Of a DNA stretch of 64,000 nt, positions 3,044 through 18,731 are shown one piece after another. The stretch comes from a virus. The position numbers were made by a program, and so were the translations under genes. The notes below the pieces were generated by a model. That model saw nothing but the letters and a program-made list of their open reading frames with translations. It had not been told where the DNA came from and did not search any database. Position 1 is the first letter of the stretch. Each line of letters begins with the position of its first letter. The stretch lies in the IMG/VR virus record IMGVR_UViG_3300010370_000027. The stretch is one strand, 5' to 3'.

Positions 3044-3574
3044 CTAACTATCTAACGAAAAGAAAGAAGTCCAGTCAGGATGCCAAGTTCCTGTCGGGCT
3101 AACGTCCCAGAAGTGATTCATTAGAGGAATAGTAGGAGCCTTTCTAAGATGCATTCCAGACTCAGCAAGAAGCCTAGAGCCTTTCTTTAGATTGCACCTC
3201 TTGCAAGCAGAGACACAGTTTTTCCAGTCAGTTCCACCGCCTTTGGAGCGAGGCAATACGTGGTCAATTGTGATCGTCTTGTAATCAAGATTTATTCCGC
3301 AATATTGGCACTGCCAGTTATCACGATTAAATAGAACTCTTTTTCTAAACCTTGGTGTAGAGTATTTTCGTGTTACGCGGTCCAAAAGTCTAACAGTTGC
3401 AGGAACCCTATAGGCTTTGCCTGGTGATGTGTATATTTCGTCCCAAGAGCTTGACTGCTCTCCCATTATTATGACTTCTGCTCTTCCCTTGAAGAGGAGA
3501 TTAAGGGCCCGGATTGAGGACACAAAATTTAGCGGAGTCCAGTCGGCGTTAAGAAGTAATACATTTCTTTTCAT
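3044..3574 (-). CDS. HNH endonuclease (McrA-like)
   Basis: VLLLNADWTPL N-terminus; RDNWQCQYCG...TIDHVLPRSKGG...WKNCVSACKRCNLKKG HNH motif. Confidence 0.92.
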   Translation of the reverse strand: MKRNVLLLNADWTPLNFVSSIRALNLLFKGRAEVIIMGEQSSSWDEIYTSPGKAYRVPATVRLLDRVTRKYSTPRFRKRVLFNRDNWQCQYCGINLDYKTITIDHVLPRSKGGGTDWKNCVSACKRCNLKKGSRLLAESGMHLRKAPTIPLMNHFWDVSPTGTWHPDWTSFFSLDS

Positions 3575-4527
3575 GACGACATCTTGAAGTCAAATGATAC
3601 TTCGCCCGTGTCCGCATCAACGCAAGTATTTGCGCCGATAGGTATCGGGCTCGTGAGGGGGCCGTGGGAGAAACTGTAGCCGTAAGCACAAGGTGGACCA
3701 TGACCGCAATATTCGAGAAGAACGTCTTCTACTGATGGAACCTTCCCTTCGAGATCTTTCGGTACGTCCTCAAATTGTCCAACGACAATTCCTGAAACAC
3801 TACCAAGAAAACCAGAGAGTCGCAGGTGAAGAAACTCTCGAGAAAGCTCAACGCCTTCCTTGTGAACATCCTCTACGAATAGAATCATATTCTCAGGGAT
3901 GGGCATATAGGGGGTTCCAACTAGATGGACAAAAGTGTCAAGATTTCCTCCAATAGAAATTCCCGAGACTTTTCCGGGAGATACTGTTCTTGGAAAGAAA
4001 GGATTAAAGTAGAAGGGACGAGAACCCCACAGTTGGTCGGACTTAAGCAATTCAAGAGTAAGTTTGAAAGATTCTGAGTCCGCCTCTTGAATTTTTCTTC
4101 CCTTGTCCAGACGAATAGAGGGCGTCTGGCCATTTATAGAAATGAGACCAGACTTGGTAAACAGTGCTGTGTTGATCGCAGTGAGATCAGACATTCCCAA
4201 AAATGGCTTTTGGGAAGCACGTATCTTGTCGTAATCAAGATAGGGAAGAACTGCTGCAGATCCTTCACCTCCAACAGCACCTATGACTCCTGCAATGCCA
4301 GGCTGTGAAAATGCCCAGTTGAGCTCATCAACTCTATCTCTAACAGAGCCTGCATGATCTCCTGTAGTCTTAAGATTCTTAACACAAGGTCCCAAGACAG
4401 GCTCAAGGCCGCACTCTCTGATGATATCAATTCCTGCCTGGACTTCGTCCGAGACGATAGGGCCAGAAGGAGCCACAATAGCTACGCGAGAGTTATTACG
4501 TAATCGTCTTGGAGGAAGAATTAGCAT
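3571..4527 (-). CDS. Peptidase S66 (LD-carboxypeptidase / MccF-like)
   Basis: VAIVAPSG, GMSDLT (catalytic Ser), GGNL, LFVED (Glu), FSHG (His), IPIGA: Ser-Glu-His triad order of S66. Confidence 0.88.
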   Translation of the reverse strand: MLILPPRRLRNNSRVAIVAPSGPIVSDEVQAGIDIIRECGLEPVLGPCVKNLKTTGDHAGSVRDRVDELNWAFSQPGIAGVIGAVGGEGSAAVLPYLDYDKIRASQKPFLGMSDLTAINTALFTKSGLISINGQTPSIRLDKGRKIQEADSESFKLTLELLKSDQLWGSRPFYFNPFFPRTVSPGKVSGISIGGNLDTFVHLVGTPYMPIPENMILFVEDVHKEGVELSREFLHLRLSGFLGSVSGIVVGQFEDVPKDLEGKVPSVEDVLLEYCGHGPPCAYGYSFSHGPLTSPIPIGANTCVDADTGEVSFDFKMSS

Positions 4528-12147: not shown

Positions 12148-13560
12148 TCACACCTCGACAGGAGGTTTTCCAAAATCTTTCTTTAGCTCTCTCCACTTTG
12201 AGAGAATTGCCTTCTTTTGTTCATCTTCGGCTGCCACGTTGTGAACATCAGGAGAGTCTGATTCACCCGTGATTTCAAACTTACTTCTTGCCGTATTGAT
12301 CTTAATAGGGTAAACAAGACCGTCTCTACCAGCTCTGTTCTTGGCAATATAAAGACGTCCCCAGCCACCAGCTTTTTCGTGAGGTCTACGAGAAACCGAT
12401 ACGATCACGTCACAAATCATTGCTTTTCCGTAAGCTTCTGACATGTTCGTCATGTCAATAACTTCGCTGTTTGCACCATCCTTATTAGACTGCGATGCGG
12501 TCCAAATAGGAACTCCGAGCTCCATCGCCATTCCTCTTAGCTCTTCGTAGACAAGCTTGAGTTCGTGTCGAAGAGAATCAAATTGTCTCGAAGAACGCAT
12601 GATGTCTGCGTAGTCAATGATGACCATGTCAGGCTTAAATCCCTTTAGATCAAGTCTTTCGATGTGTGACCGCAGCGTATAGACTGAAGCTGTGTTTGTC
12701 GGATACTCCTTGATGAAGAGGCGACCGAGTTTATTTTCTTCGTAGAACTTCACAACCTCTTCCTTGCGATCCATCACCTCATTGGAATCTATGTCGCAGA
12801 GGTTAGAATCGTATCGGATACCCACAGCTGTTTCTGAGAGCTCAAAGGTGTAGTGAAGCACGTTCTTGCCTTCGCGAAGAGCGTTAGCACCGATCATTGT
12901 GAGCCAGTGAGACTTACCTGAACCAGAGGCACCGACAACACAGAGCAATTCACCTTTACCGCTACCGCCGTTGAGAATCTCTTTCTTGTCGAGCTCTGGA
13001 AGACGGGTTGGAATGGTGTCACGCTTCAGCTTAGTGAATCGCGCATCCATCTCGTTGAAGAAGTCGTGGCCTACAGAAGGTGCTGTTCCAACCTGGACTG
13101 CCTTCTTGATCGTCTCGACAATAGACTCGTACTTGTTGGCCTGCATCTGATCGACGGCAGATTCCAGTGCCTTCTTGAGAGCTTGCTTACGACAGAATTC
13201 TAAGGATTTTTCCTTAACGTACTGAAGGTCTCCTAGGTCTGGATTAGACTTCATCCGTTGAAGATAATCAATTATCTGATCTCTAAGGATGACGTCAGTA
13301 CCAGACTTTAGGTCGTCTTTGATAATAGTAACAAGCAGCTGAAGAGACGGATAGACTTTGTACTTCTTTGAATAAGAAAAGTAACGATCTGCGAGGAACT
13401 TTAGATAATTGACCTCAAAGTATGAGATGTCAATGACTTCCATCATCTGTTCAGCGAACTTGTTGTCAACTAAAAGAGCTTGACACAGCTTCTCCTGAAA
13501 TGACTTGCCGAACTGACCGAATGATACGCTGTTTAGTTTGCTTTCGTTATCTTGCATCAT
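12148..13560 (-). CDS. dnaB: Replicative DNA helicase (DnaB/T4 gp41-like)
   Basis: GASGSGKS Walker A, VLHYTFELSE, VIIDYADIM, IWTASQSN, IAKNRAGRDG. Confidence 0.92.
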   Translation of the reverse strand: MMQDNESKLNSVSFGQFGKSFQEKLCQALLVDNKFAEQMMEVIDISYFEVNYLKFLADRYFSYSKKYKVYPSLQLLVTIIKDDLKSGTDVILRDQIIDYLQRMKSNPDLGDLQYVKEKSLEFCRKQALKKALESAVDQMQANKYESIVETIKKAVQVGTAPSVGHDFFNEMDARFTKLKRDTIPTRLPELDKKEILNGGSGKGELLCVVGASGSGKSHWLTMIGANALREGKNVLHYTFELSETAVGIRYDSNLCDIDSNEVMDRKEEVVKFYEENKLGRLFIKEYPTNTASVYTLRSHIERLDLKGFKPDMVIIDYADIMRSSRQFDSLRHELKLVYEELRGMAMELGVPIWTASQSNKDGANSEVIDMTNMSEAYGKAMICDVIVSVSRRPHEKAGGWGRLYIAKNRAGRDGLVYPIKINTARSKFEITGESDSPDVHNVAAEDEQKKAILSKWRELKKDFGKPPVEV

Positions 13561-14525
13561 TTATTCTCCGAAGCGAATCTCAATCCGTCGACACACGACA
13601 AATCATAAAAGAATCCTTCGTAATCAAAATCACTGATTCCTTCTTTAATTAGCAATTTGATAAGACCCATCTTATTTACTGAGGGTTCAAATGTATCTAC
13701 AACGTGTTCTACGCGCTTCATCTGATCACCCGACAACATACTGCCGTCTAAGTGGACAAGCTGCCAGTTTCTGTTGACAATGGCGGTCTCATCAACAACG
13801 CGCTTGTAGAGAACGCCCCGCTGTGTATGTGCGTAATTTATTAAGTCTTGCAACACGATTGTCTCTTCGCTTCCAAGCATTGGAAACTTCTTTGCTACGC
13901 TCTTAAAACCAAGACCTTGAATACCAGGTATGTTATCTGAATCATCACCACAAAGACACTTTGCGAGAGCAAAGTTGTGGGATCTTATCCTGAACTCTTC
14001 AAACAAGTCTTCATCTGTAATGAATTTCTTCTTATAGAGAGAATAGATCTTAGTCTTCGGTCCAAGAAGTTGATACATGTCTTTGTCTGCAGAAACTATG
14101 ACAATTTCTTTGTCTCTAAGTGGACCATTTGTCAAAAATGCTACGATGTCATCACCTTCACAATCAGACACATAGACTTGACAAACAGGTACGTTTTTCA
14201 GAGCATTGAGCAGTGTAATCAACTGATGCTGCTTGTTCTCTTCGGTGTCAGGAATGTCATCTCCGTAAAATCGGTTTAATTTTCCAGGTTTCCTATTGGC
14301 TTTATATTCTGGATATAATTTTCGTCTTCTCTGAGATCCTCCGCCCTCCCAAGTAATGTACACGCTTGTAGGATGAAACTCTCTACATAAGCGCTGCAAA
14401 GACTTAAGAAATCCTATGCATCCCCCCATCTGATAACCGTGAGATGACATCTGAGGGAATGCACTGTAAGAGCGAAGAAACATATTAAGTCCATCGATTA
14501 CAAAGACTGGACGTTCGTCTGACAT
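13557..14525 (-). CDS. 5'-3' exonuclease/flap endonuclease (Pol I N-terminal domain / T4 RNase H-like)
   Basis: VIDGLNMFLR, YPEYKANR, EGDDIV, SADKDMYQL, GDDSDNIPGIQGLG. Confidence 0.92.
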   Translation of the reverse strand: MSDERPVFVIDGLNMFLRSYSAFPQMSSHGYQMGGCIGFLKSLQRLCREFHPTSVYITWEGGGSQRRRKLYPEYKANRKPGKLNRFYGDDIPDTEENKQHQLITLLNALKNVPVCQVYVSDCEGDDIVAFLTNGPLRDKEIVIVSADKDMYQLLGPKTKIYSLYKKKFITDEDLFEEFRIRSHNFALAKCLCGDDSDNIPGIQGLGFKSVAKKFPMLGSEETIVLQDLINYAHTQRGVLYKRVVDETAIVNRNWQLVHLDGSMLSGDQMKRVEHVVDTFEPSVNKMGLIKLLIKEGISDFDYEGFFYDLSCVDGLRFASENK

Positions 14526-14531
14526 GCTGGA

Positions 14532-14561
14532 AATCTACTTTATGATTGCTTCACTTGTCAA
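14532..14561 (-). promoter_or_regulatory. Sigma70-like promoter, probably leaderless exonuclease-helicase mRNA
   Basis: TTGACA-N18-TAGATT-N6-ATG; no SD. Confidence 0.6.
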
Positions 14562-14917
14562 ATCAAAGTAATACTAGCGTACCAGTATTTTCCCATGCCT
14601 TCGCCGATGTCAAAGCATGCTTCGATTCTCATCACTGAATCTCCGAACATTTTCGTCTTGAAGAGCTTGAAGTTATCAAAGCTTGCCACTGCTTTGTGAC
14701 ACGCAGAGTCAAATTCTTTGCTCTTAATGGGAGTATGGCCTTCGGAAAGAAGTAAGAGTTCGCACACTTTTTGAGATGCACTAACTCTATAGTCTTGTAT
14801 CTTTGCAGAACCAAACTTTGAAAAACAATTCTTAGTCAGTTCTTTTTTGCACGTCATTATAACCTCCAAGAGTCCTTCCGGACTCTCGGAGATATTCCAC
14901 GTTGTATCAAAGTCCAT
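14558..14917 (-). CDS. Hypothetical protein downstream of the actin-like gene
   Basis: Start overlaps the actin-like stop (TAATG). Confidence 0.55.
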   Translation of the reverse strand: MDFDTTWNISESPEGLLEVIMTCKKELTKNCFSKFGSAKIQDYRVSASQKVCELLLLSEGHTPIKSKEFDSACHKAVASFDNFKLFKTKMFGDSVMRIEACFDIGEGMGKYWYASITLI

Positions 14918-15921
14918 TAGAGAATCTGAGATGCGATTAGGCAGCCGCGAGCGACTGCGTGAAGCGGATCAGAGGCATGCTTTACCTCTCTGACAGGGAG
15001 CGGGAAACCGTTCTCATTGAGCTTCTTCTCAAAGTGATTAACAAAACCCTTGGCTTTCGTGGTGCCACCAGCTACTACGACTGGGAGGGGGTCCTTAAAC
15101 TTTGGAAGAGATTTGTGACCATCCATTGCCGCTGCAAGCTGCTTCGTAGTGTAGTCAATAAGTCTATCGTAATACGACGAAACTGCAGCTAGGACTTGAT
15201 TGTCACACGGCTTTCCGATCGTGAAATCTCCTTGCTCCTTCTCAGATTGTACTACTGAGTCTGTCTCTCCAGTGGCAACAGCAGCCATGCGATCTACCCA
15301 GTCACCGGACTTGGTGGTGGAGAACTTGACGACAGGTTCACCGTTCAGCATGACACAAACGTTAACCATACCCGCGCCCCAAGACAGGGCAACACCGGTA
15401 TAGTCATCGTCCGCAAGCTCCGAGTAACATAGCGCTTCTGCTTCATTGATTGCCCGAGCTTCATAACCACATTCTTCGAGGACCTTCTTGACGACGTCCT
15501 CATGGTAGCCAACATCAAAATCATCGTCTTCCTGATCCACTGGTTGTGCAGGAACGCAGAAGACAAGTTTTTCGCCTCTCTTTGTTGCCTTTCCAGCGAC
15601 TTCCTTAAGTATATACGAGAGAACTCTTCTGGCGTCTTTCTCCTTTGTGGAGACTACTCCTCGATACATCGGACGCTTGGCAGAGTCATTTCGCTCTACA
15701 GCTTTTTCAATTGCGTCCTTGCCGAGAATGATGTATGACCCGTCTGTATCTTTTACGAAAACTTTTCCAGCGAGTCCCTTTTCAATCATCTTCGATGCGA
15801 TCGGAGTTGTGGGCTTGATCACATAGAAAGCATCTCTGAAATCCTTGTACTCAACAGTTCCTCCGTCACCCTCGGATGAGAGGACGATAAATGAGGTTCC
15901 AACGTCTAATCCTTTAGCCAT
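14917..15921 (-). CDS. Actin-fold ATPase (MreB/MamK/FtsA superfamily, volactin-like)
   Basis: Phosphate-1 GLDVGT, connect-1 INEAEA, phosphate-2 region SWGAGMVNV, adenosine VVAGGT, connect-2 DPLHAVARGC; 334 aa. Confidence 0.85.
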   Translation of the reverse strand: MAKGLDVGTSFIVLSSEGDGGTVEYKDFRDAFYVIKPTTPIASKMIEKGLAGKVFVKDTDGSYIILGKDAIEKAVERNDSAKRPMYRGVVSTKEKDARRVLSYILKEVAGKATKRGEKLVFCVPAQPVDQEDDDFDVGYHEDVVKKVLEECGYEARAINEAEALCYSELADDDYTGVALSWGAGMVNVCVMLNGEPVVKFSTTKSGDWVDRMAAVATGETDSVVQSEKEQGDFTIGKPCDNQVLAAVSSYYDRLIDYTTKQLAAAMDGHKSLPKFKDPLPVVVAGGTTKAKGFVNHFEKKLNENGFPLPVREVKHASDPLHAVARGCLIASQIL

Positions 15922-15929
15922 GCTTATAA

Positions 15930-16241
15930 CTATCCTTTCATCTTCTTAAGCTGAGCAAGTTTATTCGCAGCTGACGATATGTCGTCTTTTGACTGCGATA
16001 CCGTCCCAAGCGGAGAACCTTTTGATTCTATGCCGTCTGTAGAAATATCAGTAACATACGTTGAATTATCTATGGAGATTTTCGCCTTTGCTTGACGCTT
16101 CTGGTCTCTGTTCACCTCAGTGACAAAAGAGGAAACAGAAGACTCAGTGTGTCCGGAAACTCTAAGCGAACGTCGAAGACTGTCCAAAGATCCGGCAATG
16201 TAGCCAAGGGAAAAAACAACAATGAGATAAAAGCTTTCCAT
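15930..16241 (-). CDS. Small protein with N-terminal membrane anchor
   Basis: FYLIVVFSLGYIAG hydrophobic helix, polar linker, C-terminal DISSAANKLAQLKK helix; coupled to the dut stop. Confidence 0.65.
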   Translation of the reverse strand: MESFYLIVVFSLGYIAGSLDSLRRSLRVSGHTESSVSSFVTEVNRDQKRQAKAKISIDNSTYVTDISTDGIESKGSPLGTVSQSKDDISSAANKLAQLKKMKG

Positions 16242-16666
16242 TATCGTCCCGTGCTTCCAAATCCGCCTTCTCCTCTTTCTGTAGGAGAGAAATGTTCTAC
16301 ATGCCGCATCTCTGCCTGAGCAAAAGGTAAAAAGACTAGTTGAGCAATTCTGTCACCCTTCTTTACTGTATAACGTAAAGAATTATGATTTATAAGAAGA
16401 ACTTTGATTTCTCCTCTATAGTCAGAATCAATTATGCCAGGGGAGTTGAGTACTGTCACTCCGTGCTTAAAAGCCAGACCTGATCGAGGGCAAACTTGGG
16501 CAACGTATCCATTTGGAATTTCTAGATGGAGGCCTGTGCTTACTGCGCTCCACTTTCCTGGTGGGATTGTAATTTCTTCACTTGCAATTAAGTCACACCC
16601 AGCAGACCCAGGGGTTGCGTACTGAGGTGGAGCTTGGTTCTTGTATCCTACTACGACATCACTCAT
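16241..16666 (-). CDS. dut: dUTPase (trimeric)
   Basis: GSAGCDL, PRSGLA, PGIIDSDYRGEIKV, GDRIAQLV, RGEGGFGSTG. Confidence 0.96.
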   Translation of the reverse strand: MSDVVVGYKNQAPPQYATPGSAGCDLIASEEITIPPGKWSAVSTGLHLEIPNGYVAQVCPRSGLAFKHGVTVLNSPGIIDSDYRGEIKVLLINHNSLRYTVKKGDRIAQLVFLPFAQAEMRHVEHFSPTERGEGGFGSTGR

Positions 16667-17840
16667 CTGAAGTTATCTCCTCTTCAATGATCTGCTCAAT
16701 CTCACTTGGATTTATTGTCAAAGCAGCTTCAATCACAGCATTGACGTACTTCCTGTACTTCTCATCTCTCATTACGTCTCCGAAGTCTGCCTTGTAGAAC
16801 TTCTTGGTAATGAGAACTTCACCAGTCTTTTCAGAAGATACGACAAGTTCCTTCCAGGCTCCGTCTCCGGTAATGATTATCTTGTTGTCTTCGAAGACAA
16901 CACCGCCGTTCTCCTTGCAGTAAGTTCGAACTTCGTCGAAGATGTACTCGTGCTCCACGATGCCCTTACCGAAGATGATGTCGAACTCGCACTTCTTGAA
17001 AGGAGGAGCGACCTTGTTCTTCTTGATCGTGCAAATGACGTGAATACCGATGATGTTTCCGTCCTTGTCCTTCACAGGGTTGCCGCTGGATAGCGAGATT
17101 CTGACAGAAGCATGGAACGGAATGGCCTTACCGCCAGGTGTAGTGGTTGGATCACCATACATGACACCGATCTTGTCGCGGATCTGATTGATGCAAAGCA
17201 ACGTCACGTTGTTCTGACCGATCACGCCTGTAATCTTTCGCATACCCTTAGAGATGACACGAGCTTGCAGACCAATCGTGTTGTCCTCATACTCACCGTC
17301 GAGTTCAGCCTTGGGTGAAGTCGCTGCAACGGAGTCCCAGATGACAACGATTGGTACGTTCTTCTCGATTATTTGCTTTGCCTTGGTAATGGTCGATTCA
17401 ATAATCGAGAATACTTCTTCGGTCATGTGGGAGTCGCAGTAGACAAACCGCTTCTTAACGTCGATTCCCATGTCAGCGAGCTTCTGAACGGGCGTGGCAT
17501 TCTCAGTATCCACATAGACGACAAGGCCGCCCATCTTCTGGGCAACTGCAGCAGCATGATAGGCCAGGTGAGACTTTCCACTTGATGGTGGACCGCTAAT
17601 CTCAATGATTCGTCCCTCAGGATATCCGCCATCGACGGCATTTCTAATGGCGTAGTTCAGTTGAATGGAGCCTGTATCGATCCATCGCTTGACAATGGTT
17701 GGTGCATCCATTTCCGAGAGATTGTAAGCAACCCTCGTTCCGAACTCCTTGTTGATGGACGTGATGAGATCCTTCATCATGTCATCTACGTCGCTCTTCT
17801 TTGAAGAGGTTGTTTCTAATTCCTTGTCTTTCTTAGCCAT
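16659..17840 (-). CDS. recA: RecA/UvsX recombinase
   Basis: GRIIEISGPPSSGKS, YVDTE, WDSVAA, INQIRDKIG, TTPGGKAIPFHASVRI, KNKVAPPFK. Start moved to ATG 17840 (GGAG upstream); the track start lies inside a hairpin. Confidence 0.93.
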   Translation of the reverse strand: MAKKDKELETTSSKKSDVDDMMKDLITSINKEFGTRVAYNLSEMDAPTIVKRWIDTGSIQLNYAIRNAVDGGYPEGRIIEISGPPSSGKSHLAYHAAAVAQKMGGLVVYVDTENATPVQKLADMGIDVKKRFVYCDSHMTEEVFSIIESTITKAKQIIEKNVPIVVIWDSVAATSPKAELDGEYEDNTIGLQARVISKGMRKITGVIGQNNVTLLCINQIRDKIGVMYGDPTTTPGGKAIPFHASVRISLSSGNPVKDKDGNIIGIHVICTIKKNKVAPPFKKCEFDIIFGKGIVEHEYIFDEVRTYCKENGGVVFEDNKIIITGDGAWKELVVSSEKTGEVLITKKFYKADFGDVMRDEKYRKYVNAVIEAALTINPSEIEQIIEEEITSDE

Positions 17841-17861
17841 TAATTTGTCTCCGTAAGAAGA

Positions 17862-17889
17862 AAGGGCACACACGACTGTGTGTGCCCTT
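17862..17889 (-). terminator. Intrinsic terminator between ssb and recA
   Basis: AAGGGCACACAC-AGTC-GTGTGTGCCCTT followed by TCTTCTT. Confidence 0.75.
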
Positions 17890-17897
17890 CATAGTAA

Positions 17898-18731
17898 TCA
17901 CTCTTCACCGATTAGATCTGCGAATGCATCATCAAGAGACTGCTTCTTAGCTTCTGTCTTCTCCACCTTCTTTACAGGTTTCTTGTCGGATTGCTTCACT
18001 TCCGCGACGAGACTTTCAAGTTCATCAACAGGCTCGGAGCCGCGAGAGGATCCGCCGTCGGCCGAAGAATCTGCAGATCCTCCGCTCAGCCAATTGTTGA
18101 GGATGGTCTCAATTTCTTGGGTAGACTTGAGCCTGTACATGTCGTCGATGCTCGGAATGTTATCAAGCCACTTCTGGGATACAGACTGGTCAGAGTGGAG
18201 AGAAGTAGACTTGCGTGCAGGATCTACGGTAGTGTCATTAAACTGCTTGCCAGGCTGCTTCGAAATAGTGACCTTGAGATCGAAACCTTCGGTCGGAGAG
18301 AGGATATCACCAACCTCCTCGTCGAGGAAGAAGCCAAGCATGCGCTGGTAGACGAGCTTACCAAAGCTCCAGATTTGGACCCCCTTGTCTTCCTCGCCTC
18401 TAACAATAACGGGAGCATAGCATCGCATCTTCGGTGCTAACTTCTTGGCAAGAACCCTGTCCTCTGGCTTTCCACTGCTGTAAAGCTTGCGGATGAGATC
18501 GTCGATGGGATCGGGCTTGCCAAATTGCTTTGGTGTCAAAATTCCTGCATTTTCACCGATGTAGTAGAACCAGCGTTCTGCGAATGGCTGACCGTCCGGT
18601 GAGTTCTTCCAAGGGAGGCACCTTACCTTGTATTCGCCTACAGTCGGCTTCCACATCTGAACCGAAGATGTCTTCTTGACACCGCTGAGTTCTGCGACAC
18701 GACGCTTAATTGCCTCTAGATCAATAGCCAT
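17898..18731 (-). CDS. Single-stranded DNA-binding protein (T4 gp32-like)
   Basis: WKP..GEYKVRCLP, VIVRGEEDKGVQIWSFGKLVYQ, GDILSPTEGFDL, acidic tail LDDAFADLIGEE; adjacent to recA. Confidence 0.8.
   Translation of the reverse strand: MAIDLEAIKRRVAELSGVKKTSSVQMWKPTVGEYKVRCLPWKNSPDGQPFAERWFYYIGENAGILTPKQFGKPDPIDDLIRKLYSSGKPEDRVLAKKLAPKMRCYAPVIVRGEEDKGVQIWSFGKLVYQRMLGFFLDEEVGDILSPTEGFDLKVTISKQPGKQFNDTTVDPARKSTSLHSDQSVSQKWLDNIPSIDDMYRLKSTQEIETILNNWLSGGSADSSADGGSSRGSEPVDELESLVAEVKQSDKKPVKKVEKTEAKKQSLDDAFADLIGEE

Follow-up and report, generated by a model that had tools for sequence, protein, structure and literature searches.

Does a large phage build its own actin filament, and if it does, what would hold that filament in place inside the host cell? 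The question is raised by a stretch of viral DNA 64,000 nucleotides (nt) long, IMG/VR record IMGVR_UViG_3300010370_000027 (hereafter the window), which is a piece of an uncultured large phage. Three co-oriented open reading frames (ORFs) on its − strand encode proteins of 103, 334, and 119 amino acids (aa) and lie within a run of DNA replication genes. An earlier annotation made without database searches (the sequence-only reading) had placed these ORFs at exactly the coordinates where we find them, and had proposed that the 334-aa protein is an actin akin to the haloarchaeal filament protein volactin and that the 103-aa protein (hereafter the adaptor) is its membrane-anchored partner. We consider a membrane-tethered, end-anchored, polymerizing phage actin that is made during DNA replication to be the best-supported reading of the locus, and a probable one.

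The 334-aa protein belongs, as a nucleotide-binding actin, to the volactin family. It matches the Pfam model Volactin (PF25216) with 226.5 bits (E-value 7.4e-67; cut-off 35), and the alignment joins residues 1–330 of the protein to positions 1–320 of the 321 in the profile. Across 14 control genomes, the same model scored above its cut-off in Haloferax volcanii only, the species from which volactin was defined (PMC10869688). Models of other actin families remained below their cut-offs, narrowly for the Pfam salactin model (26.9 bits; cut-off 27.1), by more for the Pfam MreB model PF06723 (21.6 bits; cut-off 27; residues 59–127 only), and by a wide margin for the NCBIfam models of salactin, BeeR, MamK, and MreB (14–37 bits; cut-offs 290–530), of which TIGR00904 (MreB) scored 14.2 bits (cut-off 365.75). 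No family in PHROGs or NCBIfam was found above cut-off for the protein, and a PDB search by sequence returned nothing significant.

The nucleotide-binding motifs that the sequence-only reading had recognized are D6-x-G8-T9 (phosphate 1), E160 (connect-1), S180-x-G182-x-G184 (phosphate 2), and G285-G286-T287 (adenosine). Among 56 relatives, down to 31 per cent identity, D6, G8, T9, E160, G182, G184, G285, and G286 are invariant, and S180 and T287 are conserved in at least 90 per cent, which bears out their assignment. An AlphaFold 2 (AF2) model of the protein has a predicted local distance difference test (pLDDT) value of 95.9 and a predicted template modeling (TM) score of 0.92. In a Foldseek search, the best solved structures were BeeR (8r2n), MamK (5ljv), and MreB (4czm), all of them filament-forming actins, with TM-scores of 0.65–0.73 and 14–19 per cent identity; the next ranks were taken by PilM, FtsA, and eukaryotic actin, and not by Hsp70 or sugar kinases. 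Together with the phylogenetic trees described below, the end-to-end PF25216 match and the structure search support the earlier assignment to volactin rather than to MreB, FtsA, or ParM. The protein does not group with non-polymerizing ATPases of the Hsp70 or sugar-kinase type, the outcome that would have spoken against the sequence-only reading.

Compared at equal evolutionary distance, the actins are 81–87 per cent identical, against 62–71 per cent for the exonuclease and 54–61 per cent for the dUTPase of the same gene run, and 33–50 per cent for the adaptor. Conservation as strong as this would be expected of a polymer with many interfaces. From this extreme conservation and from the behavior of the family, we infer that the phage protein polymerizes into dynamic filaments. 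Some volactin genes are split by inteins with LAGLIDADG homing endonucleases (P0121, 695 aa, and P0132, 702 aa), at two sites, one after approximately residue 203 (the GDW(I/V)D motif) and the other after approximately residue 180 (phosphate 2). The sites that inteins invade are, as a rule, highly conserved and indispensable.

Relatives of the actin are encoded on 392 IMG/VR stretches. For analyses of gene context, we used 80 IMG/VR loci in which the actin is 76–99 per cent identical to that of the window; contigs of relatives are up to 298 kb long, and one is complete, with direct terminal repeats. A DNA search of deposited phages gave only trivial 60-nt matches in RecA and no close relative, and a protein search of a phage collection matched only two huge uncultured phages (33–38 per cent identity). 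The family as a whole comprises 977 clusters at 50 per cent identity with E-values of at most 1e-3, and 299 with E-values of at most 1e-30. Homologs on large haloarchaeal replicons of Halogeometricum, Haloarcula, and Natrinema (tblastn, plasmid records) are 35–37.5 per cent identical to the phage actin over 99 per cent of the query, and the three score 436–466 bits with the Volactin model. The N-terminus, M-A-K-G-L-D-V-G-T, is identical in the phage actin and in these homologs.

The most acidic representatives of the family had been presumed to be haloarchaeal and are in fact chromosomal genes of Planctomycetota: all 52 loci retrieved in a search for them came from metagenome-assembled genomes (MAGs) of that phylum, a figure that is biased because the patterns used in the search had been taken from these very sequences. 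In a separate sample of Planctomycetota, 65 of 151 genomes encode a Volactin match above cut-off, often in 2–4 copies. One MAG (L086) carries two tandem volactin paralogs, of 381 and 517 aa, and a 729-aa protein (P0127) matches the Volactin model in two stretches. The long planctomycete volactins (700–940 aa) have N-terminal extensions that are acidic and of low complexity. We considered whether long planctomycete forms of 700–900 aa might be fusions of adaptor and actin, and rejected this possibility because the extensions have that composition and are not the partner.

To place the phage actin within the family, we reconstructed trees with FastTree (130 rows) and with IQ-TREE in quick mode, with support from the Shimodaira–Hasegawa-like approximate likelihood ratio test (SH-aLRT; 68 rows). 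Escherichia coli MreB served as the one outgroup, and VolA of H. volcanii was left out and replaced by the Halogeometricum, Haloarcula, and Natrinema homologs. The two trees are mutually consistent. Specifically, the clade of the window's actin is monophyletic (SH-aLRT 96) and sister to a phage lineage with 53 per cent identical actins (99), and it groups with other sequences from phage contexts, apart from the haloarchaeal (99) and planctomycete (93) clades. A very long branch lies between E. coli MreB and the whole set of volactin-family rows, the haloarchaeal ones included, with weak support for the deep branches; the phage actin thus sits with the haloarchaeal volactin homologs and far from MreB, as the sequence-only reading had anticipated. 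This topology argues that the phage actin is a distinct viral branch and not a recent capture from haloarchaea or planctomycetes. An 85 per cent identical actin (P0033) is filed in an NCBI 'Chlamydiae bacterium' MAG; it is probably a mis-binned phage contig and not evidence of a host.

The adaptor is the most faithful neighbor of the actin. Its gene lies upstream of the actin gene in all 78 related loci that include upstream DNA, and directly adjacent to it in 76; in the remaining two (L047 and L051), the pair is separated by a DNA methyltransferase gene, a methyltransferase-like insert of 276 aa at about 3178..4008. The pairing persists in many loci where the dUTPase and the exonuclease no longer flank the two genes, and the 53 per cent identical lineage (L141) also has a homologous transmembrane adaptor upstream, with the same tail. 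Beyond it, a lineage with 44 per cent identical actin (L142) has a 150-aa upstream partner that ends in A-I-D-K-L-R-Q-L-K-K-A-K-G, a 42 per cent identical lineage has a 245-aa coiled-coil protein in this position, and the huge phage LR745208 has a 207-aa partner that ends in A-L-K-A-V-R-K-K. The synteny of the membrane-protein gene, put forward in the sequence-only reading as a check, therefore holds throughout the close relatives and extends to the 53 per cent identical lineage.

The adaptor itself has no family in Pfam (E-value of at most 0.1), PHROGs, or NCBIfam. It evolves fast, at 30–92 per cent identity among relatives whose actins have barely changed. In an alignment of 40 sequences (A4), it consists of three conserved elements with variable basic linkers between them. 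The first is the predicted N-terminal transmembrane helix, with a Kyte–Doolittle hydropathy of 1.79 over 17 residues in the window and of up to 3.1 in relatives; the end of this helix, G-Y-x-x-G-[RS]-x-D, is conserved, and G13 is invariant. No basic residue precedes the helix and an RR..R cluster follows it, a charge pattern that suggests an N-out/C-in topology and hence a cytoplasmic tail. The middle block reads I-D-x-x-K-F-V-T-D-x-S-T-D-x-L-E-K-K-G-x-x-L-G, and the terminal helix reads D-D-I-x-S-x-x-x-K-L-A-Q-L-K-K-x-K-G. Within the tail, I57, L95, and K99 are invariant, and D58, T68, L78, G79, D86, K94, and L98 are conserved in at least 90 per cent of the sequences. Hence, the small neighbor with an N-terminal membrane anchor and a basic C-terminal helix is upheld, as a predicted helix and a conserved basic tail.

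Does the adaptor tail bind the actin? We predicted the complex of the actin (alignment A1) with adaptor residues 36–103 (alignment A4), and obtained a median score of 0.66 (0.54, 0.71, and 0.66 in individual runs), compared with 0.00 for the best of three controls. In calibration, 58 of 80 solved complexes attained this mark, compared with 2 of 110 mismatched pairs, counts that apply only roughly here because the alignments were custom ones. At least 86 per cent of contacts are shared between runs, and the pLDDT of the adaptor is at least 53. The contacts with the lowest predicted error join adaptor residues 88–98 to actin residues 166, 170, 173–174, 193–195, and 329–333, which belong to the end of the helix after Glu160, the first hairpin of subdomain IIA, and the C-terminal helix. 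These three elements together form the groove between subdomains IA and IIA. In the model, the last helix of the adaptor (about residues 86–101) occupies this groove, residues 81–86 add a strand beside actin strand 23–28, and residues 63–80 run along subdomain IB, so that the interface spans adaptor residues 63–102. The model supports, without itself showing, the binding of the adaptor tail to the actin, in line with the interaction that the sequence-only reading had suggested looking for.

In actin, ParM, and MreB, the IA/IIA groove is the docking site of the next protofilament subunit, and it also binds ParR and WH2-type ligands. A ligand bound there would therefore be attached either to the end of a filament or to a monomer. 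Volactin filaments of H. volcanii are dynamically unstable, and they touch the membrane with their tips and are never laid along it (PMC10869688). Such tip-to-membrane contact fits the predicted binding of the adaptor at the end groove.

Cellular volactins have upstream partners as well. On the three haloarchaeal replicons, a DUF7139 protein of approximately 300 aa (E-values 1e-36 to 1e-48) is encoded directly upstream of the volactin homolog on the same strand, with 4 predicted transmembrane segments, an acidic linker, and a V-x-G-L-[RK]-x-L-[RKQ]-G-G segment; in H. volcanii, the CdpA-like protein HVO_2016, also with four transmembrane segments, adjoins volactin, HVO_2015 (PMC12126565). The phage adaptor has no DUF7139 or CdpA-like match in Pfam at an E-value of at most 0.1. 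Upstream of the short-form volactins of Planctomycetota lies a coiled-coil protein of 240–470 aa without transmembrane segments, and these partners end in G-S-A-L-[DE]-[RK]-L-K-A-M-R-G-G. The pattern [LV]..L[KR].[LM][KRQ]G occurs in the window's partner, in 8 of 40 phage partners, in 11 of 17 planctomycete partners, and in all 3 haloarchaeal ones, against 33 hits in a background of 4811 six-frame ORFs from these loci, those partners included; it was defined after all three groups had been viewed, and the members within each group are interrelated. The phage and cellular partners thus share a suggestive resemblance at the level of a sequence motif, and their homology is without statistical support.

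A wider reading, which we put forward tentatively and hold to be rather doubtful, would make the basic tail helix (L-x-x-L-K-x-M-K-G) a universal filament-end ligand of volactins. Volactin and an upstream adaptor with an interchangeable N-terminal anchor would then be one ancient, portable, tip-anchored system, with a single transmembrane helix as the anchor of jumbo phages, a CdpA-like domain with four transmembrane segments as that of haloarchaea, and a coiled coil as that of Planctomycetota. In phages, such a system would serve to nucleate filaments on the membrane of the host and, by means of them, to position the replication factory.

The surroundings of the three ORFs are listed in the table below. 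Pfam and PHROGs matches give the order of the replication run, from the SSB gene through those for RecA/UvsX and dUTPase, the 103-aa, actin, and 119-aa ORFs, and the exonuclease and helicase genes to that for ribonucleotide reductase, and this corroborates the replication-cluster setting (recA, dut, exonuclease, helicase) of the sequence-only reading.

Features of the actin locus and its flanks in the window (positions in the 64,000-nt stretch; empty cells, nothing recorded)
Feature	Coordinates	Strand	Basis or remark
Single-stranded DNA-binding protein (SSB), gp32-like	17898..18731		Pfam/PHROGs
RecA/UvsX	16659..17873		Pfam/PHROGs
dUTPase	16241..16666		Pfam/PHROGs
Small adaptor, 103 aa, with a predicted membrane helix at the N-terminus, a basic linker that varies, and a conserved tail at the C-terminus	15930..16241	−	
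Adaptor, predicted transmembrane helix, residues 3–19, N-out/C-in	16185..16235	−	Kyte–Doolittle
Adaptor, conserved tail, predicted cytoplasmic, residues 54–103	15933..16082	−	40-sequence alignment, complex model
Adaptor/actin junction: Shine–Dalgarno-like AAAGGA in the last adaptor codons, TAG stop, ATAGTTA	15927..15938	−	
Volactin-family actin-like ATPase, 334 aa	14917..15921	−	Pfam PF25216, AF2 model, Foldseek
Accessory gene, 119 aa, not core to the module	14558..14917	−	No family
5'-3' exonuclease	13557..14525		Pfam/PHROGs
DnaB-like helicase	12148..13560		Pfam/PHROGs
Ribonucleotide reductase, 843 aa	9552..12083		After the helicase in the replication run

The junctions within this run are tight. 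The stop codon of the dUTPase gene and the start codon of the adaptor gene overlap by 1 nt (TAATG), as do those of the actin and 119-aa genes, and 8 nt separate the TAG of the adaptor gene from the ATG of the actin gene. No terminator-like site was found on the − strand between 16700 and 14500, and a search for sigma-70-like sites and terminators inside the module gave nothing decisive. The gene order, the 1-nt and 8-nt junctions, and the absence of a terminator-like site in that interval point to co-expression of the module with the replication genes. A motif ATAGTTA (15927..15933, −) stands 5 nt before the actin ATG, where the sequence-only reading had noted it, and overlaps the TAG stop of the adaptor gene. 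Its position was correct; its interpretation as a late promoter of the actin gene is rejected, both because of the overlap with the upstream stop and because the motif is poorly conserved, being retained in 8 of 46 distinct upstream sequences. The element that relatives do keep is a ribosome-binding site, AAAGG/AGGAG, and the pair is therefore best read as co-translated in the replication operon. More generally, ATANTTA is mildly enriched in the window (23 sites compared with 15 ± 3.3 expected), e.g., at 2816, 4532, 6740, 9545, 12095, 19169, 37962, 43830, 46924, 50298, and 60916 (all −), and most copies are 5–40 nt upstream of − strand gene starts; it may be a promoter element of the phage. 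In one relative (L001, 9484..13005), the ribonucleotide reductase downstream of the module bears an intein with an HNH endonuclease, and that of the window does not.

The 119-aa gene is an accessory one. Its translational coupling to the actin gene, claimed in the sequence-only reading, is real (the TAATG overlap), but it is not a conserved part of the system: the gene is present in 15 of 81 related loci, nearly all of them with an actin at least 92 per cent identical to that of the window. Pfam, PHROGs, and NCBIfam contain no family for the protein. An AF2 model built from a 12-sequence alignment has a pLDDT of 79, with three of the five models poor. Over 90–114 aligned residues, the modeled fold is similar to one half, that of the A domain, of the major capsid proteins of the HK97 fold and of encapsulins, and the top 18 structure matches are all HK97-fold capsid or encapsulin proteins (Z-scores 10.4–7.4).

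Taken together, these observations suggest how the module may work. The actin and the adaptor would be a cytoskeletal module of the phage whose transcription and translation go together with those of the replication genes. The adaptor would insert into the cytoplasmic membrane of the host by its N-terminal helix and leave a tail of approximately 80 residues in the cytoplasm, and the last helix of this tail, if the complex model is right, would plug the IA/IIA groove of the actin. By holding a filament end or a monomer there, the adaptor could nucleate filaments or fasten their tips to the membrane. The filaments may then act as organizers during replication; to judge from AlpC/AlpA and PhuZ, their object would most likely be the phage DNA that is being copied or the factory in which this happens.

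Several observations weigh against this reading. The first residue of phosphate 2 is Ser180 instead of the Asp found in actin, MreB, and ParM, a trait of the whole family. The predicted transmembrane helix of the window's adaptor is moderately hydrophobic. The pairing is not universal, as the huge phage LR756511 has a 76-aa upstream ORF without the motif, and in a lineage with 43 per cent identical actin (L144), ClpP lies upstream instead. Variability at the predicted interface is no lower than elsewhere in the actin (0.142 compared with 0.111, and 0.086 for the cleft alone), and covariation between the adaptor tail and the actin groove gave no usable signal, because the groove is almost invariant. 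A hidden Markov model of the phage adaptor tail found nothing significant among planctomycete ORFs (best relevant E-value 2.9), and hhalign compared phage with planctomycete partners at a probability of 0.7 per cent and an E-value of 0.078, with the C-termini aligned. Finally, the adaptor lacks a detectable DNA-binding domain (Pfam, PHROGs, NCBIfam) and the interval 13500–17900 contains no centromere-like iterated repeats, only short two-copy matches.

The likeliest of the alternatives, though still an unlikely one, is that the module serves a take-over of the host, in which membrane-anchored filaments would alter the shape or volume of the host cell, block its division, or displace its cytoskeleton. 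Volactin is a cell-shape factor in H. volcanii that drives the rod-to-disk transition (PMC10869688), its CdpA-like neighbor comes from a family that anchors the division ring (PMC12126565), and the only recognizable partner of the phage actin is a membrane protein rather than one that binds DNA or capsids; moreover, with volactins in the Planctomycetota genomes counted above, some hosts may have a related filament. However, the module lies within the DNA replication cluster and is coupled to it, and at 35–38 per cent identity to cellular volactins and in a separate clade, the phage actin is unlikely to co-polymerize with them. Next in likelihood, and improbable in our view, is an adaptor that holds monomers at the membrane and thereby limits or times polymerization, in the manner of thymosin or capping protein. 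The predicted interface would suit such a role, as it covers the IA/IIA groove and extends up IA and IB, a surface that would be needed or buried in a protofilament, and translational coupling would supply the two proteins in near-stoichiometric amounts. The complex model, however, cannot separate capping from nucleation or sequestration, and strict co-inheritance of the two genes is compatible with either reading; the volactin filaments of H. volcanii that end at the membrane (PMC10869688) fit end-anchoring instead.

We give still less weight to a segregation system of the ParMRC or AlpAC type, in which a centromere-bound adaptor would couple the actin to phage genomes and let it push or pull them, as might happen if the phage had a plasmid-like carrier state. 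The layout of an actin gene with a small co-transcribed adaptor gene upstream is that of alpA-alpC (PMC4446434), and the groove in which the C-terminal helix of the adaptor is predicted to lie is the textbook site of ParR on ParM. Against this stand the membrane helix of the adaptor, the missing DNA-binding domain and repeat array already described, and a gene set that is a lytic, T4-like replication module in a group whose relatives have genomes of 200–300 kb, one of them with direct terminal repeats. Least likely of all, and very improbable, is that the two genes are unrelated neighbors, a non-polymerizing chaperone- or kinase-like ATPase beside a holin, spanin, or exclusion protein. Small proteins with a single transmembrane helix and a charged tail are indeed common as lysis and exclusion proteins of phages, and the Asp missing from phosphate 2 would suit such an ATPase. 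Yet the founder of the family polymerizes in vivo (PMC10869688), the best structural matches are all filament-forming actins, the pair is kept across lineages in which every other neighbor changes, no lysis genes are adjacent, the N-out/C-in charge pattern is the opposite of that of an i-spanin, and the complex model passes with its controls at 0.00.

The membrane-tethered phage actin that we favor combines known and new elements. Systems of an actin with an adaptor and the volactin family are known; the membrane-anchor partner and the viral setting are new. A full-text search of the literature on volactin, phage-encoded actin, and actin-like proteins of jumbo phages turned up no paper that describes a volactin encoded by a phage or the membrane partner of one. 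To our knowledge, the cytoskeletons that phages build are mainly the PhuZ tubulin spindle and one prophage actin, AlpC. The module described here differs in its actin family and in having a membrane anchor rather than a DNA adaptor as partner, and it is very strongly conserved and found in hundreds of environmental phage contigs 200–300 kb in size. It also offers a testable explanation of why haloarchaeal volactin filaments contact the membrane only by their tips, in that the adaptor tail may plug the end groove, and the complex prediction names the residues on both proteins. The 'archaeal' volactin family also proves to be widespread in Planctomycetota, the cell biology of which is a matter of debate. 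If the portable-system reading were true, lytic jumbo phages would have in this module their first actin-based cytoskeleton, a counterpart of the PhuZ spindle.

Among systems of known function, BeeR, MamK, and MreB share with the window's actin the four-subdomain actin fold, at the TM-scores given above, and differ from it in sequence, with family models that score far under their cut-offs on the phage protein. The PhuZ spindle of nucleus-forming jumbo phages is likewise a phage-encoded cytoskeletal polymer of large phages that is thought to organize replication and assembly; it has the tubulin fold and no membrane-anchored partner, whereas the polymer proposed here has the actin fold, and the tubulin-family model PF00091 has no match in the complete 298-kb relative or in a 211-kb relative. 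ParM/ParR/parC of plasmid R1 resembles the phage module in the C-terminal adaptor helix that lies in the IA/IIA groove, known for ParR and predicted here; in the window, by contrast, there is no centromere array and no ribbon-helix-helix part, the adaptor gene comes first, and the predicted anchor is the membrane and not DNA.

The AlpC/AlpA pair of prophage CGP3 of Corynebacterium glutamicum is, like the pair in the window, a phage actin-like protein with a co-transcribed upstream adaptor, and it is expressed early and needed for efficient replication of the phage DNA (PMC4446434). AlpA, however, binds DNA and links the phage DNA to the filaments (PMC4446434), whereas the adaptor of the window is predicted to be anchored in the membrane; AlpC is a ParM/Alp-like protein of a prophage, and the window's actin is a volactin of a large, apparently lytic phage. 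Volactin of H. volcanii (VolA, HVO_2015) and HVO_2016 parallel the phage pair in that a full-length PF25216 actin is accompanied by a membrane protein encoded directly upstream. Volactin is cellular in haloarchaea, whereas the gene in the window is viral and belongs to a replication operon; the actins of the two groups fall into separate clades at the identities reported above, and the phage adaptor has one transmembrane helix in 103 aa where the haloarchaeal DUF7139 proteins have four in approximately 300 aa. The haloarchaeal partners resemble the phage adaptor in layout, each having a transmembrane part and a linker that is disordered, and the basic motif L-[KR]-x-L-[KRQ]-G may be common to both.

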